A stretch of DNA of 64,000 nucleotides from positions 654,477 through 718,476 of the forward strand of contig JBEKRK010000001.1 in assembly GCA_049518795.1 (NCBI GenBank), written 5' to 3'. Numbering within the stretch: the stretch's first letter is position 1; each line of letters opens with the position of its first letter. The stretch comes from Sedimentisphaerales bacterium. Lineage in GTDB: Bacteria; Planctomycetota; Phycisphaerae; Sedimentisphaerales; UBA12454. This document shows, piece after piece, positions 58,501-64,000 of the stretch. The notes beneath the pieces were generated by a model. That model searched no databases. It saw nothing but the letters and a program-made list of their open reading frames with translations, and had not been told where the DNA came from. The position numbers and the translations under genes were made by a program.

Positions 58501-58700
58501 TTTTAATCTCCTTATAATCTAACAGATATACCGGCACAACCGGTTTGAACGCTTATTTTGATGTTTTTGCGATGCACTTTCAGCCTTTTAATTTCTTCGG
58601 CATTTCACCGGGGTTTTCATTAAAACTGGTTCTGGCATTTTCAACGCGGATATGTATAATAAAAGGGCTGTTTTTTCTGAATAAGGATATTAAGATAAAA

Positions 58701-60686
58701 ATGAGCGAATATATTCCACTTACGAAAAAGCAAATCAAGCAGCTTCAAAAGCAAAACTGCTCATCCGGCAACTGGAAAGATGTGGCTGTTTCGCCTGATT
58801 TTAAGCCTGACAATATAAAAAATGCGATATTTTCAGGCAAAGTTAAATTAGGCAAATTTGATAAAATGATTAACTTTTACGGCGGAGTAAGCAAACCAGC
58901 CGGCATTTATAATGCCTATATTCATAACTGCACTGTGGGCGATAATGTGTATATTTCCAACGTATCGAATCATATAGCGAACTACATAATAGAAGACGAC
59001 TGCATAATCGACCATATAGACCTGCTTGCAGTTGAAGGCCAAACAACATTCGGCAACGAGACGAAAGCGGTGGTTATAAACGAAGCCGGCGGCAGAGAAG
59101 TTATAATATTCGATAATCTTTCCGCTCAGATTGCTTATATTTTAGCCCTGCACAGACATAGGACGATTGTTCGAGAAAAGATTGAAAAGCTGATAGCACA
59201 ATATGCCCAAAGCGTCAAATCCGACATCGGCACAGTAGGCAAAGGCGCTCATTTATCAAACTGCGGCACAATCAAAAATGTCCAAATCGGCGATGCGGCG
59301 ATTATCGGCAACGTAAAACGGCTTGAAAACGGCACAATAAAAAGCTGCTCACAAGACCCAACAGAGATCGGCGCAAGCGTTGTCGCAAAGGATTTTATAA
59401 TCGCCGAAGGCGTTAAAATAAGCGAGGGCTCAATAATTTTCAATTGCTTCATCGGCCAGGCAACAAAAATAAACAGGCAGTTTTCCGCGGAGAATTCAGT
59501 CTGTTTCGCCAACTGCGGCTTTCATCACGGCGAGATATGCTCGATTTTCGCCGGCCCTTATACTGTCAGTCATCACAAGTCCACACTTCTCATAGCCGGA
59601 CTGTTCAGTTTCTTCAACGCCGGCAGCGGAACAAACCAAAGCAATCATTTGTATAAAACCGGTGCAGTGCATCAGGGTATTTTCGAACGCGGCACAAAAA
59701 TGACCAGCGACGGCTACGTTATGTATCCTGTCTGGATTGGAGCGTTTTCGGTAGTTCTGGGCAGACATTACGCACATCCGCAGACTGCTGATTTGCCTTT
59801 TTCATATCTCTTCGAGGAACAGGGCAAAACTTTCGTCGTGCCGGGCATAAACCTGCGGACCGTAGGCACAGTCCGCGACGGCGAAAAATGGCCGAAACGC
59901 GACGAAAGAAAATCGCCGGACAAAACAGACTTGATTATCTTCGACGTTCTAAGCCCTTACACCGTCCAGAAAATCATAAGAGGACTCGATATCCTGCTGG
60001 GCCTCAAATCCGCTCAAACAGACTCTTCAAATACAGTCGCCTGCGGAAACCAGTATTTCAAGGTTCCGGCTCTCCTCAAAGGAATAGAATACTATACAAT
60101 CGCAATCAATAAATTCCTCGGCGACTGCCTGATTGAAAAATTACAGTCCTGCCGGCCGGGAACGGCTGCGGATATTGTAAAGCTTGTCAATGATGCGGAT
60201 TTGGAAGGCTGCGGCAAATGGCTCGATATCGCGGGACTACTTGTGCCGGAAAAATCTTTAAATTCCCTGCTCGGCAATATTGAAAATGAAAAATTAAATA
60301 CGCTCGATTCAATTTCGGAAAGATTCAAACGCCTTTATGAAAGATACGGCGAATATAAGTGGTCGTGGGCGGCTGAAAAAATCCGTAATATTATGAATAA
60401 CCAAAAAAACATACCCGAACCTGAAAAAATAATAAAGATTATTCAAGACTGGGCCGGCGCCTGCGAAAAATTAACTGCTCTCATTATCGAAGATGCGGGC
60501 AAGGAGTTTGCAGAGGAGCAGAGGCTCAGTTTCGGAATCGACGGCGGCAAAGAGACAAGGGACGCCGATTTTGATGCGGTCAGAGGCACCTTCCAGGGCA
60601 ATAGTTTCATTCGTCAGCTTAAAGGGCAAATCGAAACTACAAAAAAAACCGCCGAAGAAATGATAAGGAAAATCAAAGCACGATGA
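58701..60686 (+). CDS. DUF4954-like protein (predicted left-handed beta-helix N-terminal half)
   Basis: MSEYIPLTKKQIKQLQKQNCSSGNWKDV resembles the DUF4954 N-terminus as I recall it. Start set at the ATG 58701 rather than the hydrophobic, SD-less 58545 extension. Confidence 0.55.
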   Translation: MSEYIPLTKKQIKQLQKQNCSSGNWKDVAVSPDFKPDNIKNAIFSGKVKLGKFDKMINFYGGVSKPAGIYNAYIHNCTVGDNVYISNVSNHIANYIIEDDCIIDHIDLLAVEGQTTFGNETKAVVINEAGGREVIIFDNLSAQIAYILALHRHRTIVREKIEKLIAQYAQSVKSDIGTVGKGAHLSNCGTIKNVQIGDAAIIGNVKRLENGTIKSCSQDPTEIGASVVAKDFIIAEGVKISEGSIIFNCFIGQATKINRQFSAENSVCFANCGFHHGEICSIFAGPYTVSHHKSTLLIAGLFSFFNAGSGTNQSNHLYKTGAVHQGIFERGTKMTSDGYVMYPVWIGAFSVVLGRHYAHPQTADLPFSYLFEEQGKTFVVPGINLRTVGTVRDGEKWPKRDERKSPDKTDLIIFDVLSPYTVQKIIRGLDILLGLKSAQTDSSNTVACGNQYFKVPALLKGIEYYTIAINKFLGDCLIEKLQSCRPGTAADIVKLVNDADLEGCGKWLDIAGLLVPEKSLNSLLGNIENEKLNTLDSISERFKRLYERYGEYKWSWAAEKIRNIMNNQKNIPEPEKIIKIIQDWAGACEKLTALIIEDAGKEFAEEQRLSFGIDGGKETRDADFDAVRGTFQGNSFIRQLKGQIETTKKTAEEMIRKIKAR

Positions 60687-60738: not shown

Positions 60739-60768
60739 TTGACAAGGTCTTACGTTTTATAGTAGAAT
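60739..60768 (+). promoter_or_regulatory. sigma70 promoter TTGACA-N18-TAGAAT upstream of the pilT-like gene
   Basis: -35 at 60739-60744 and -10 at 60763-60768. Confidence 0.55.
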
Positions 60769-60871: not shown

Positions 60872-61999
60872 ATGGCCGAAAAGAAGCAGCCAATTGATAC
60901 ACATGTGCGTTTGGAGGTAGAGCCGGAGATAAACAGGTATTTTAAAGCCGCGATTAAGGCAAACGCCAGCGACCTGCATCTTAAAGTCGGACATCCGCTG
61001 AAGTTACGAGTCAACGAAGATATTAGAGATACAACGACGGAGCCGCTGACTGAAGAGGTAATTGAAAGGCTTATTTTTGAGATTATTAGTGAGCAGCAAA
61101 AACAATTTTTCCTCGAAAACGGCACTCTCGACTTCGCTCACGAAGTCGGCCAATCGGACAGATTCAGGGTAAACATTTTCAGACAAAGGTCTAAAATCAG
61201 TTTATCAGCAAGAAGAATGATTTCGAAAATTCCTCCCCTTGACTCACTTCATCTGCCCGCTGCGGTTAAAACTCTCGCTGACAAATCCTATGAAGGCCTG
61301 ATTCTCGTAACAGGACCATCACGATGCGGCAAAAGCACTACAATCGCATCAATGATAGACTACATAAATCAAACCCGCTCCTGCCATATAATTACTATAG
61401 AAGACCCGCTTGAATTTACCTTCGTCGATAAAAAAGCAATTGTCTCTCAAAGAGAAGTCGGCATCGATGTTAAGGATTACACAGGAGCGCTGGACTCGCT
61501 GACAAAACAGGACCCCGATGTGGTCCAGCTCGGCGAAATGCGGAATAAAGACACGCTGCTTGCGGCGATAAAAGCAGTGGAAACAGGCCGATTGGTCTTC
61601 GGCACCCTGCTTTCCACAAACGCCCTGCAAACCATACAGCGAATCGTTGACCTGTTCCCGCAGGAAGAAAGATATCTGGCAAGACAAAGATTCGCCAATG
61701 CCCTCAAGGCTATTGTATGCCAGTCAATTATTCCCGGAGCGAAAAAAGATATGCCAAGAGTGCCAGCTGTTGAAATACTCATCGCAAATCCAATCGTTAA
61801 AAACCTCATAGCAGAAGGACGGGAAAACGACATTAACGGAATTATAAGAACAAGCCCAAGCGAAGGAATGCAGAGCTTCACCGAAAGTCTCAGGGCGCTG
61901 GTTGAAAATGAATCGATTGACCTGAAGATAGCCCTGCAGTATGCTCCAAGCGCAGAAGAATTGAAAATGGCTCTTAAAGGAATTATGGCCAGAGCTTAG
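60872..61999 (+). CDS. pilT: PilT-like type IV pilus retraction ATPase with a degenerate His box
   Basis: ASDLHLKVG, Walker A GPSRCGKSTT, Asp box IITIEDPLEF, and Walker B DPDVVQLGEMRN. The His box reads TGRLVFGTLLSTN where TGHLVFGTLHT is expected. Confidence 0.8.
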   Translation: MAEKKQPIDTHVRLEVEPEINRYFKAAIKANASDLHLKVGHPLKLRVNEDIRDTTTEPLTEEVIERLIFEIISEQQKQFFLENGTLDFAHEVGQSDRFRVNIFRQRSKISLSARRMISKIPPLDSLHLPAAVKTLADKSYEGLILVTGPSRCGKSTTIASMIDYINQTRSCHIITIEDPLEFTFVDKKAIVSQREVGIDVKDYTGALDSLTKQDPDVVQLGEMRNKDTLLAAIKAVETGRLVFGTLLSTNALQTIQRIVDLFPQEERYLARQRFANALKAIVCQSIIPGAKKDMPRVPAVEILIANPIVKNLIAEGRENDINGIIRTSPSEGMQSFTESLRALVENESIDLKIALQYAPSAEELKMALKGIMARA

Positions 62000-62034: not shown

Positions 62035-63705
62035 ATGCCGACAGTTATAGCAGCAATACAATTAGGAGCTTATATTTCAATCATCAAGCTGGTTGTCTTT
62101 ATAATCGGATTTTTTGTCTGGTTTCCATTGCTTATCTGGGTCAATAATGACGCAAAAAATGTGCGCACCAACTCGTTCAAGTGGACTTTGACAGTTTTGA
62201 TAGCCGGCGCTGCAGGTATTCTTATTTGGCTGCTGATACCGCTTTTTATCATCGGACTTCCGATATATATAATAACGTTAGGCACAACCTCGATAGTCTA
62301 TGTTATGCACCGCAATAGTCTGGTTGGTGAATTTCAAAAAGTTTTGACAGTCGGCCATATAAAAGGGCTTTTTACCAATGAACAAAAGCAGATAGAAAAA
62401 ATCAACAAAGGCCTTCTATTTATAACGGCAAACAAAAACAAAGTTCCGCCCCCTCGACCGAAAACGCCGGAGTTTTTCGGCTTTAAAGTCGCACAGGATT
62501 TTTTCAATGACGCAATCTGGAAACGGACAAGCGATATAGTCCTGACACCTGCCGCCCAGCAATATCAGATACACTTTGCCATTGACGGCGTAATTGAAAA
62601 GCAGGAGCCCCGCCAAAGAGAAGAATGCGAATTTTTCATAAGGTATCTCAAAAATCTTGCAGACCTCGATGTCGAAGAAAAACGCAAACCCCAGACCGGC
62701 CGATTTACTGTTCAAAAAGACGAGCAGCCATTCGAATGGGAGGTTACCACAGCCGGCACAACAGCAGGAGAGCAGGTTAAATTAAGATTATTCGCAGCAC
62801 ATAATATTCTTAAACTGACTAATTTGGGACTTGCGCCCGAACAGCTTGAACAGTTTCAAAACCTTCGGGACGCCAAAGGCGTTTTTATCATATCCGGCCC
62901 CAAAAAGAGCGGCGTAACTTCAACTTTCTATGCCCTTATACGCAATCATGACCCATTTATGAACAATATAAACATACTCGAAAAAAGACCTATCGGCGAC
63001 CTGCCTAATGTTACACAGATTGTTTATTCACTAAGCGACACAGGAACAGTATCTTATGCCAAAAGATTCCAGGCAATACTCAGGACCGGGCCTGACATTG
63101 TCGGCGCTGAACACTGCGATGATGATAAAGGAATAGCCAAATTAGCCTGCGCATCGGCAAAAGACGGCAAGATGACCTATATAACTATGGAAGCGTCAGG
63201 CGTTATCGAAGCCATAGGCAAATGGATAAATTATGTAGGCGACAAGGATGCTGCAATCGACTATTTAGTGGGAATAAGCAATCAGCGGCTTATAAGAATA
63301 CTATGTGAAAAGTGCAGAGAACCTTATGAGCCAAACAGGGATATGCTGAGAAAATTGAATATTCCAGCCGACAAAATAAAGCAGTTTTACCGTCCCGGCC
63401 AACCTCAGGCCAAACGCGGCAGGCCGATTGTTTGCGAGCGATGCCAGGGCACCGGCTTTTATGGAAGAGAGGCTGTATTTGAAATTATTTTCCCGAACGA
63501 TGAAATCAAAAAACTCCTGAAACAGGCCAAAACGAAAGCTGATATCCAAAACATTTTCAGGCACGCAAGAATGTTATACCTGCAGGAACAGGCCATCAGG
63601 AAGGTGGCTACAGGTTTGACATCAATAAATGAAGCGATTCGCGTTCTGTCAGGCTCACAGGATGCGCAAGACAGCGGGAAAAAGAAAACCGAAACAACAG
63701 AATGA
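62035..63705 (+). CDS. membrane-anchored GspE/PilB-like protein with degenerate ATPase motifs
   Basis: Three N-terminal TM helices, then a GspE N2/CTD-like region (SDIVLTP, IDG) and a retained tetra-Cys cluster (CEKC...CERCQGTG). Walker A reads GPKKSGVTS, with no Lys. Confidence 0.65.
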   Translation: MPTVIAAIQLGAYISIIKLVVFIIGFFVWFPLLIWVNNDAKNVRTNSFKWTLTVLIAGAAGILIWLLIPLFIIGLPIYIITLGTTSIVYVMHRNSLVGEFQKVLTVGHIKGLFTNEQKQIEKINKGLLFITANKNKVPPPRPKTPEFFGFKVAQDFFNDAIWKRTSDIVLTPAAQQYQIHFAIDGVIEKQEPRQREECEFFIRYLKNLADLDVEEKRKPQTGRFTVQKDEQPFEWEVTTAGTTAGEQVKLRLFAAHNILKLTNLGLAPEQLEQFQNLRDAKGVFIISGPKKSGVTSTFYALIRNHDPFMNNINILEKRPIGDLPNVTQIVYSLSDTGTVSYAKRFQAILRTGPDIVGAEHCDDDKGIAKLACASAKDGKMTYITMEASGVIEAIGKWINYVGDKDAAIDYLVGISNQRLIRILCEKCREPYEPNRDMLRKLNIPADKIKQFYRPGQPQAKRGRPIVCERCQGTGFYGREAVFEIIFPNDEIKKLLKQAKTKADIQNIFRHARMLYLQEQAIRKVATGLTSINEAIRVLSGSQDAQDSGKKKTETTE

Positions 63706-63717
63706 AAGTGAAGAAAA

Positions 63718-64000
63718 ATGCTGGCTGAACTGGCAGTAATTTTGATTATACTTATGACGGTCGCCTTTACATATCTTAAAGGCTCAATTATCAAGGCGTT
63801 TTTGCTTCTGATAAGTACATTTATCGCTGCGACTATCGCATTTGCATACTTTGAAACACTGGGACAGCTGGTAATAGGCTATAAATTAATGCCGCAATGG
63901 GCATTCGGCGCCACTTTATTAATTATCTTCGCTTTTACATTGGCTATTTTAAATGCAATCGGCGGTAAACTGATAAAAACTGACATATACTTTGGCGATG
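63718..64000 (+). CDS. CvpA-like membrane protein, N-terminal fragment (runs off the window)
   Basis: ATG at 63718, open to the window end. Hydrophobic MLAELAVILIILMTVAFTYLKG... resembles CvpA-family N-termini. Confidence 0.35.
   Translation, partial: MLAELAVILIILMTVAFTYLKGSIIKAFLLLISTFIAATIAFAYFETLGQLVIGYKLMPQWAFGATLLIIFAFTLAILNAIGGKLIKTDIYFGD

Follow-up and report, generated by a model that had tools for sequence, protein, structure and literature searches.

The ATPases of the PilB/GspE family are textbook soluble motors. Degenerate or non-hydrolysing P-loop proteins that selection maintains in a structural or regulatory role beside an active motor are known from the archaellum (FlaH beside FlaI) and from the F1-ATPase (alpha beside beta), but FlaH is a soluble protein of the RecA/KaiC type and not a PilB paralogue, F1 alpha retains its Walker A lysine and binds nucleotide, and neither is anchored by helices of its own. 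A ring NTPase that is anchored by helices and paired with a soluble hexamer of the PilT/VirB11 superfamily at the inner membrane is seen in VirD4/TrwB and VirB11, but VirD4 belongs to the FtsK/HerA lineage rather than to PilB/GspE and is catalytically competent. Here we describe a locus to which the first two systems are functional analogues only and the third is likewise an analogue. It lies in a 64,000-nucleotide stretch (hereafter the window) of the genome of a Sedimentisphaerales bacterium of the Planctomycetota (assembly GCA_049518795.1, contig JBEKRK010000001.1, positions 654,477 to 718,476 of the forward strand), and its central gene (62035..63705, plus strand) codes for a protein of 556 residues which we identify as a predicted membrane-anchored, catalytically degenerate member of the PilB/GspE family, encoded between a PilT-family ATPase and a CvpA-family membrane protein. 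The association of these three genes across the class Phycisphaerae suggests an undescribed envelope module.

The central gene is one open frame with an ATG start codon and no internal stops, and a GGAG sequence is found 6 nucleotides 5' of the ATG. Its product belongs, among the PilT-like secretion ATPases, to the PilB/GspE branch. The Pfam T2SSE profile (PF00437) is matched by residues 153-536 with 163.3 bits (cutoff 24.9) over positions 12-370 of the 370 in the profile, and the best match among PDB sequences in a phmmer search is PilF of T. thermophilus (5oiu, E 2e-42). The NCBIfam equivalog models for GspE/PilB are missed (TIGR02533, 179.3 versus 617; NF007755, 178.6 versus 630; TIGR02538, 167.7 versus 676), and homologues carry only the public names 'GspE/PilB-like', 'TadA' or 'hypothetical'. 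An AlphaFold2 (AF2) model built on a 97-sequence alignment (pLDDT 86.9, pTM 0.74) shows the N2 and C-terminal ATPase fold following the anchor and a linker. In Foldseek comparisons the model superimposes on PilF (5oiu_B) with E 1e-34, a TM score of 0.89 and an rmsd of 2.9 Å, and the TM scores against PilF, Geobacter PilB and Vibrio EpsE range from 0.87 to 0.89 (rmsd ~3 Å), while PilT structures are matched at 15% identity. The likeness to canonical PilB/GspE proteins such as PilF thus comprises the N2 and C-terminal fold, the zinc subdomain, the first arginine finger and the Asp-box glutamate, at about 23-26% sequence identity.

This protein departs from canonical PilB/GspE proteins in the loss of the Walker A lysine and the Walker B glutamate, of its second arginine finger and of the His box. 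Motifs were called from a pairwise phmmer alignment to PilF and from a MAFFT multiple alignment against the canonical paralogues of the same genome. Walker A (residues 288-296; 62896..62922) reads GPKKSGVTS in place of GPTGSGKS in PilF, so that the position of the lysine is occupied by Val294; across the family V, L, A, I or R is found there. In the Asp box (LEKRPIG, residues 315-321; 62977..62997), where ILEKRPIG aligns with IEDPVEY of PilF, the canonical pattern E-D-P-x-E is gone except for the Mg-coordinating Glu316, which is invariant in alignment A2. Walker B (residues 352-363; 63088..63123) reads GPDIVGAEHCDD as against DPDIIMVGEIRD in PilF, with a one-residue deletion and loss of the Gly-Glu pair, and the column of the catalytic glutamate holds a histidine in this protein and is variable in the clade (A, G, F, S, Q and others). 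Both histidines of the His box (residues 377-388; 63163..63198; DGKMTYITMEAS) are missing, DGK..TMEAS standing in place of TGH..TLHTN in PilF. Within the N2 domain (residues 151-262; 62485..62820), as delimited by the PilF alignment and by comparing columns with canonical relatives, R217 in EKRK (62677-62688) preserves the first arginine finger, and Glu236 (62734-62745) replaces the second, where canonical relatives read D[FLI]R[VL]. The tetra-cysteine zinc motif, which marks PilB/GspE against PilT, is intact (C424, C427, C467 and C470; 63304..63444): CEKC...CERCQGTG is in register with CEHC...CERCGGTG of PilF, and its four cysteines are invariant in 97 sequences.

According to McCallum et al. 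2017 (PMC5424180), the Walker A and Walker B residues, the glutamate acting in catalysis, a pair of arginine fingers and one Asp-box glutamate are fully conserved in the superfamily, and one histidine of the His box shows high conservation among PilT-like ATPases. Of the six residues listed there, the anchored protein has lost four, R217 and E316 being those that remain. All four hydrolysis motifs are likewise absent from 39 of 43 full-length anchor-bearing representatives, three of the others retaining only the Walker B Gly-Glu and one only the Walker A lysine. At the level of sequence these observations support a pseudo-ATPase, in which hydrolysis would have been lost.

The N-terminal membrane domain (residues 1-96; 62035..62322), as delimited by AF2 helices, hydropathy and conservation, is modelled as three helices (16-43, 47-67 and 71-96) with a Kyte-Doolittle peak of 2.7 over 19-residue windows, and includes conserved W29, W35, D39, W50 and P69 and a YVMHRN motif. 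It is joined to the N2 domain by a conserved linker (residues 97-150; 62323..62484), recognised by invariant columns in alignment A1 (LT..HIK and FITAN.N.VP.P.PKT.E..G) and modelled as partly ordered, with pLDDT values of 71-90 and a short strand at 127-130. The positive residues of the anchor are located in the loop 36-49 and after helix 3, and a predicted N-out/C-in topology with a cytoplasmic ATPase domain fits the sequence. In a Pfam scan no known domain was recognised in the anchor, the only match being to a YwiC-like domain below threshold (E 0.065). Canonical PilB/GspE proteins differ in bearing soluble N1 or MshEN-type domains in place of such an anchor. N-terminal hydrophobic helices are also absent from nine of the 10 other GspE/PilB paralogues and from all four PilT-like proteins of this genome. 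The preliminary description of the locus, made by eye, had reported these three helices, the likeness to the N2 and C-terminal domains of GspE/PilB, the loss of the Walker A, Asp-box, Walker B and His-box motifs beside an intact zinc cluster, and from these a pseudo-ATPase, all of which are reproduced by the profile matches, alignments, hydropathy and structure model given above. Misalignment as the source of the motif losses was rejected, since neither the HMMER nor the MAFFT alignments, whether to PilF or to the genome's own paralogues, restore the P-loop lysine. A mis-called upstream frame or fusion artefact was rejected as well, because the anchor helices are in one open frame with the ATPase domain and the same architecture recurs across more than 300 representative clusters.

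Searches recovered more than 1,200 full-length homologues, the top 120 of which are at least 53% identical over the full length, anchor included; the source names of the homologues are Phycisphaerae, Sedimentisphaerales and Anaerohalosphaeraceae. When residues 1-162 were compared with 1.84 billion representative proteins, 306 clusters were recovered, whose full-length members are GspE-like proteins of 500-760 residues. A census with a profile of the anchor domain (A4), run against 401 Planctomycetota genomes each at least 90% complete, found exactly one copy per genome in 109 of them; the matches lie in open frames mostly of about 540-790 residues, and the present gene is matched with E 1.8e-38. 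A single copy is present in all 17 other genomes of the same order and in all 35 of the rest of the class, that is in 53 of 53 sampled Phycisphaerae genomes if the present one is counted, and matches are also found in 37 of 40 genomes of the family named Planctomycetaceae. Among the same genomes several other Planctomycetota families gave no match at all (e.g. 0/33 and 0/11); family names in the census rest on the source names of homologous proteins, the sample labels being coded. Approximate pairwise dN/dS values for the anchored protein gene are 0.081 and 0.085 against the two nearest relatives (L042 and L041, respectively), and the gene is under strong purifying selection rather than decaying.

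The gene directly 5' of the anchored protein (60872..61999, plus strand), which ends 35 nucleotides before its start, encodes a dedicated PilT-family ATPase of 375 residues (NCBIfam pilT_fam, TIGR01420, 363 bits; cutoff 319). Its Walker A lysine, Asp box and Walker B glutamate (GE) are present, the motifs reading GPSRCGKS and GEMRN. Its His box reads TGRLVFGTLLSTN, with both histidines replaced (by R and L), where other orthologues read TGHLVFGT[IL]H; the loss of both is common only to this genome and its nearest relative L042, and L041 is without the first histidine only. By its motifs, neither ATPase of the module is canonical in this lineage. The PilT-like gene is still under purifying selection despite the loss of its His box (dN/dS 0.058 against L042 and 0.106 against L041). 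Upstream of it a promoter-like site, TTGACA-18-TAGAAT (60739..60768, plus strand), matches the consensus at 11 of 12 positions; it is possibly the operon promoter, though sites of this kind are no more numerous in the scan than expected in shuffled sequence and this is a pattern match only.

On the other side, a CvpA-family gene starts 12 nucleotides after the anchored protein gene (63718..64000, plus strand) and continues past the end of the window to the equivalent of position 64800; the full open reading frame, for 360 residues, lies in L012 (2728-3810). The full protein matches Pfam Colicin_V (PF02674) with 31.7 bits (cutoff 29.3), and the 94 residues inside the window give only 21.3 bits. 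Its AF2 model (pLDDT 76.4) contains four transmembrane helices (2-21, 24-54, 59-85 and 94-122) and a beta domain at about residues 200-326. The four-helix N-terminal membrane domain is the likeness to CvpA, from which this protein differs in the extra C-terminal beta-sandwich. For that beta-sandwich (P0241) no significant fold match was found in the PDB (best E 0.022), and a resemblance to FlaF/FlaG, the archaellum stator, was not significant (probability 0.47, E 0.13-0.15) and was not used. To our knowledge, E. coli CvpA has no link to PilT/GspE ATPases. The approximate dN/dS of the CvpA-family gene is 0.17-0.23 against the two nearest relatives (L042 and L041), and the function of CvpA has been described as largely unknown (bioRxiv 10.1101/2020.09.25.314492; PMC6705877).

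The order PilT-like gene, anchored protein gene, CvpA-family gene is conserved in all 10 Phycisphaerae loci inspected (the present genome, L016, L018, L035, L036, L037, L039, L040, L041 and L042). Since the flanking genes vary between these loci, the unit consists of the three genes. The preliminary description had named the same two neighbours and proposed that the anchored protein could tether or regulate the adjacent motor: the genetic tie to the PilT-like gene holds, but that protein has itself lost its His-box histidines in this genome, and the unit has three members rather than two. No gene for a pilin, a secretin, a GspF/PilC platform or GspL/PilM was found beside the module in any locus examined, in contrast to the loci of canonical PilB/GspE, and there are no other type IV secretion genes here. 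The genome as a whole has 10 canonical GspE/PilB genes, nine GspF/PilC genes and four PilT-like genes, three besides that of the module. All nine platform genes adjoin canonical GspE/PilB genes and none is near this locus. So many type IV filament motors are unusual for a genome of 2.9 Mb. In the full-text literature searched we found neither an anchored or inactive PilB/GspE protein nor a link between PilT and CvpA, in agreement with the earlier impression that the architecture had gone uncharacterised.

Directly 5' of the module the window also contains a gene (58545-60686) for a protein with DUF4954 and DUF6819 domains (636 and 153 bits, respectively); it was rejected as a part of the module because it is not conserved beside it in relatives, and is probably unrelated. 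Just past the end of the window, about 190 nucleotides 3' of the CvpA-family gene, lies a conserved minus-strand open reading frame of 50 codons (MSKREIIDFICQINRSA.P.FLA.F....L..YL.HLME...), seen in four genomes (L020 9470-9622, minus strand; L016 10991-11143; L018 11517-11669; L042 3651-3803), for which there is no Pfam match on record. A role as an anti-phage system was considered and rejected, since PADLOC gave no match for the anchored protein or the CvpA-family protein and for the PilT-like protein only a weak generic P-loop match to mad8 (25.8 bits).

The search with the anchor also retrieved proteins of Planctomycetaceae, with Thalassoglobus, Planctomicrobium and Rubinisphaera among their source names, whose motifs are fully canonical (GPTGAGKST, VEDPVEY, DPDVVMIGEIRD and TGH..H). 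These 'GspE/PulE family' proteins (Thalassoglobus neptunius, Rubinisphaera margarita, Planctomicrobium spp.) have a homologous anchor (W..W[VI]..D, Y[VI].[HE]RN.RV and T..H) and, as in Phycisphaerae, occur as one copy per genome together with a dedicated PilT orthologue. They differ in their canonical motifs, in an N-terminal extension, in a roughly 3-4 times slower evolution and in that PilT is often unlinked. The orthologue of the dedicated PilT was present in all five Planctomycetaceae genomes checked (72-74% identical in the four besides the query's own) and lies sometimes hundreds of kilobases from the anchored gene, and a CvpA-family gene follows the active form in two of three loci. The extension, of 60-80 residues in the orthologues of L033, L034 and L038, has a signal-peptide-like start, which fits a predicted periplasmic N-terminus.

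Rooted on PilT proteins, a carefully built tree places all anchored proteins in a single clade (support 99/97), apart from the soluble paralogues of the genome. Within it the degenerate proteins form a clade of their own (100/100) on a stem of 0.64, sister to the canonical anchored Planctomycetaceae clade (98/99), and the PilT neighbours of the module likewise form their own clade (100/99). A quick tree of 77 rows recovers the degenerate and the canonical anchored proteins each as a single clade (SH-aLRT 93 and 99, respectively). As the sister clade is canonical, anchoring is older than inactivation, and the catalytic residues were probably lost once, with the caveat of long branches. The varied replacements at the position of the Walker A lysine, together with two genomes nested in the degenerate clade that keep Gly-Lys-Thr there, suggest that constraint on this position was relaxed after the other motifs had gone.

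A second anchored GspE/PilB paralogue is encoded on contig 3 of the same genome (~236324-238500; L009 1090-2661). It has 523 residues, two N-terminal hydrophobic helices and canonical versions of all catalytic motifs, and is followed 5 nucleotides 3' by a gene for a CvpA-family protein of 207 residues (L009 2666-3289; PF02674, 33.3 bits); the pair also occurs in two relatives (L044 and L045). No relation between the two anchors of this genome is detectable (hhalign probability 0.3%), and as each has a CvpA neighbour the pairing of GspE with CvpA occurs in two separate anchored lineages. N-terminal hydrophobic helices, which had been singled out earlier as unusual, are indeed missing from the genome's other T2SSE proteins bar this one, but in view of this paralogue and the Planctomycetaceae proteins membrane anchoring is not peculiar to the inactivated form.

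Based on these observations we somewhat favour the proposal that the anchored protein is a non-catalytic membrane scaffold or adaptor coupling the PilT-like and CvpA-family proteins. It would descend from a GspE-like ATPase that was both active and membrane-anchored, such as Planctomycetaceae still have. Before the radiation of the Phycisphaerae, both His-box histidines, the Walker A lysine and the Walker B glutamate would have been lost along with the second arginine finger and the acidic residues (D/E) of the Asp box, the fold, zinc site, anchor and juxtamembrane linker being retained after inactivation. The product would most likely form a PilB-like ring on the cytoplasmic side of the inner membrane, to which each subunit contributes three helices. 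This ring, without enzymatic activity, would link the PilT-family ATPase to the CvpA-family protein as a scaffold or adaptor. In such an arrangement the dedicated PilT would be the only plausible energy source of the module, and the CvpA-family protein would stand in place of the PilC/GspF platform of type IV filament machines. Ring formation, physical contact with the PilT-like and CvpA-family proteins and what the module moves or senses are points that we infer.

Several observations count against this proposal. The anchored protein still has its P-loop glycines and Thr295, together with the first arginine finger and Glu316, which binds Mg, so that nucleotide could still be bound without hydrolysis. 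In two genomes of the same order, G206 (L023) and G254 (L025), the Walker A Gly-Lys-Thr is kept (GTPKSGKTT and GPPKSGKTT), although both are nested deep in the degenerate clade and have lost all other hydrolysis motifs. The proposed energy source is itself without a His box in this genome, and the picture of a dead scaffold with a live motor is therefore weakened for this lineage. Terminal branches in the degenerate clade exceed those of the canonical anchored proteins in length by a factor of about 3-4, so that the monophyly of the degenerate proteins could be inflated, and the dS values (~1.0-1.6) are near saturation, which makes the dN/dS values approximate.

The first of these points leads to the most serious rival, in which the protein is a switch or sensor that binds ATP/ADP or another phosphate ligand without hydrolysing it, and thereby gates the PilT-like or CvpA-family protein. 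G288, G293, T295, R217 and E316 are invariant, K291 is conserved in at least 90% of the sequences of its own order, the degenerate motifs hold a tight consensus of their own without drift, and two relatives retain GK[T]. Against this, conservation of K291 does not extend to the rest of the class (PPKSGLS, PSGQGRT, PPHSGRT), and the contacts to the gamma-phosphate, namely the second arginine finger and the His-box histidine, have all been replaced. Such a switch, which overlaps with the scaffold, seems to us a realistic but distinctly less probable account.

It is rather unlikely that the protein acts as an accessory regulator on one of the genome's usual machines for type IV pili or type II secretion, for example as a membrane decoy competing with canonical PilB/GspE for PilC/GspF. 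In favour of this are the 10 canonical GspE/PilB, nine GspF/PilC and three further PilT-like genes of this genome, and PilB and PilT share a platform in type IVa pili. Yet no pilin, platform or secretin gene adjoins the module in any locus examined, throughout the class the protein occurs once per genome, whereas canonical systems differ in number, and it is accompanied by a PilT clade and a CvpA-family partner of its own.

Slightly less probable still are mixed rings with the PilT-like protein, in which dead anchored subunits would alternate with live soluble ones in the manner of alpha and beta in the F1-ATPase. Both proteins share the packing unit made up of the N2 and C-terminal domains, their genes are strictly adjacent and their phylogenies parallel, and the anchored protein still has its first arginine finger, which works across the interface between subunits. 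PilT, however, has no zinc subdomain and differs from the anchored protein at about 85% of positions, and the two genes often lie at a distance from each other in Planctomycetaceae; we know of no description of mixed PilB/PilT rings. It is quite improbable that the protein still hydrolyses ATP through non-canonical residues, for example with Lys291, which in this sequence lies three residues ahead of the usual position, in the role of the Walker A lysine, and with Glu359, which precedes the column of the catalytic glutamate by one residue, as a shifted catalytic base, since neither residue is conserved across the clade and the His box, second arginine finger and Asp-box acids are missing too. 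A decaying pseudogene, or an artefact of annotation or assembly fusing a membrane frame to a broken GspE, for which nothing beyond the degenerate motifs speaks, can be dismissed in view of the open frame, the more than 300 clusters, the single copy in each of 109 genomes, the dN/dS of about 0.08 and the confident AF2 model.

Beyond the role of the anchored protein as a scaffold or adaptor, a broader and more tentative idea, which we hold to be possible although the odds are somewhat against it, is that the PilT-like protein, the anchored pseudo-GspE and the CvpA-family protein constitute a self-contained, undescribed inner-membrane machine of Planctomycetota that works without pilins, PilC/GspF or a secretin. 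The CvpA-family protein would be its channel or platform, the GspE-derived ring a fixed cytoplasmic collar, and PilT would supply, or once have supplied, its power. If so, the active anchored form and the second anchored GspE-CvpA pair would represent the ancestral two-part version, and the module would for the first time give the widespread CvpA family a mechanistic setting.

New here are a sister clade whose anchored proteins are active, a census showing one copy per genome across the class, the erosion of PilT in the present lineage, and a second pairing of GspE with CvpA. Throughout a bacterial class, one anchored, apparently catalytically dead copy of PilB/GspE is kept together with a private PilT and a CvpA-family partner. 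The active anchored form of Planctomycetaceae, the dead anchored form of Phycisphaerae and the dead form accompanied by an eroding PilT in the present lineage make up a comparison series that could reveal roles of secretion-ATPase rings other than the burning of ATP, and the repeated pairing of GspE with CvpA provides a testable handle on the CvpA family. As the Phycisphaerae are abundant anaerobic polymer degraders with an unusual cell biology, an envelope module that is universal among them is likely to be important to the group.

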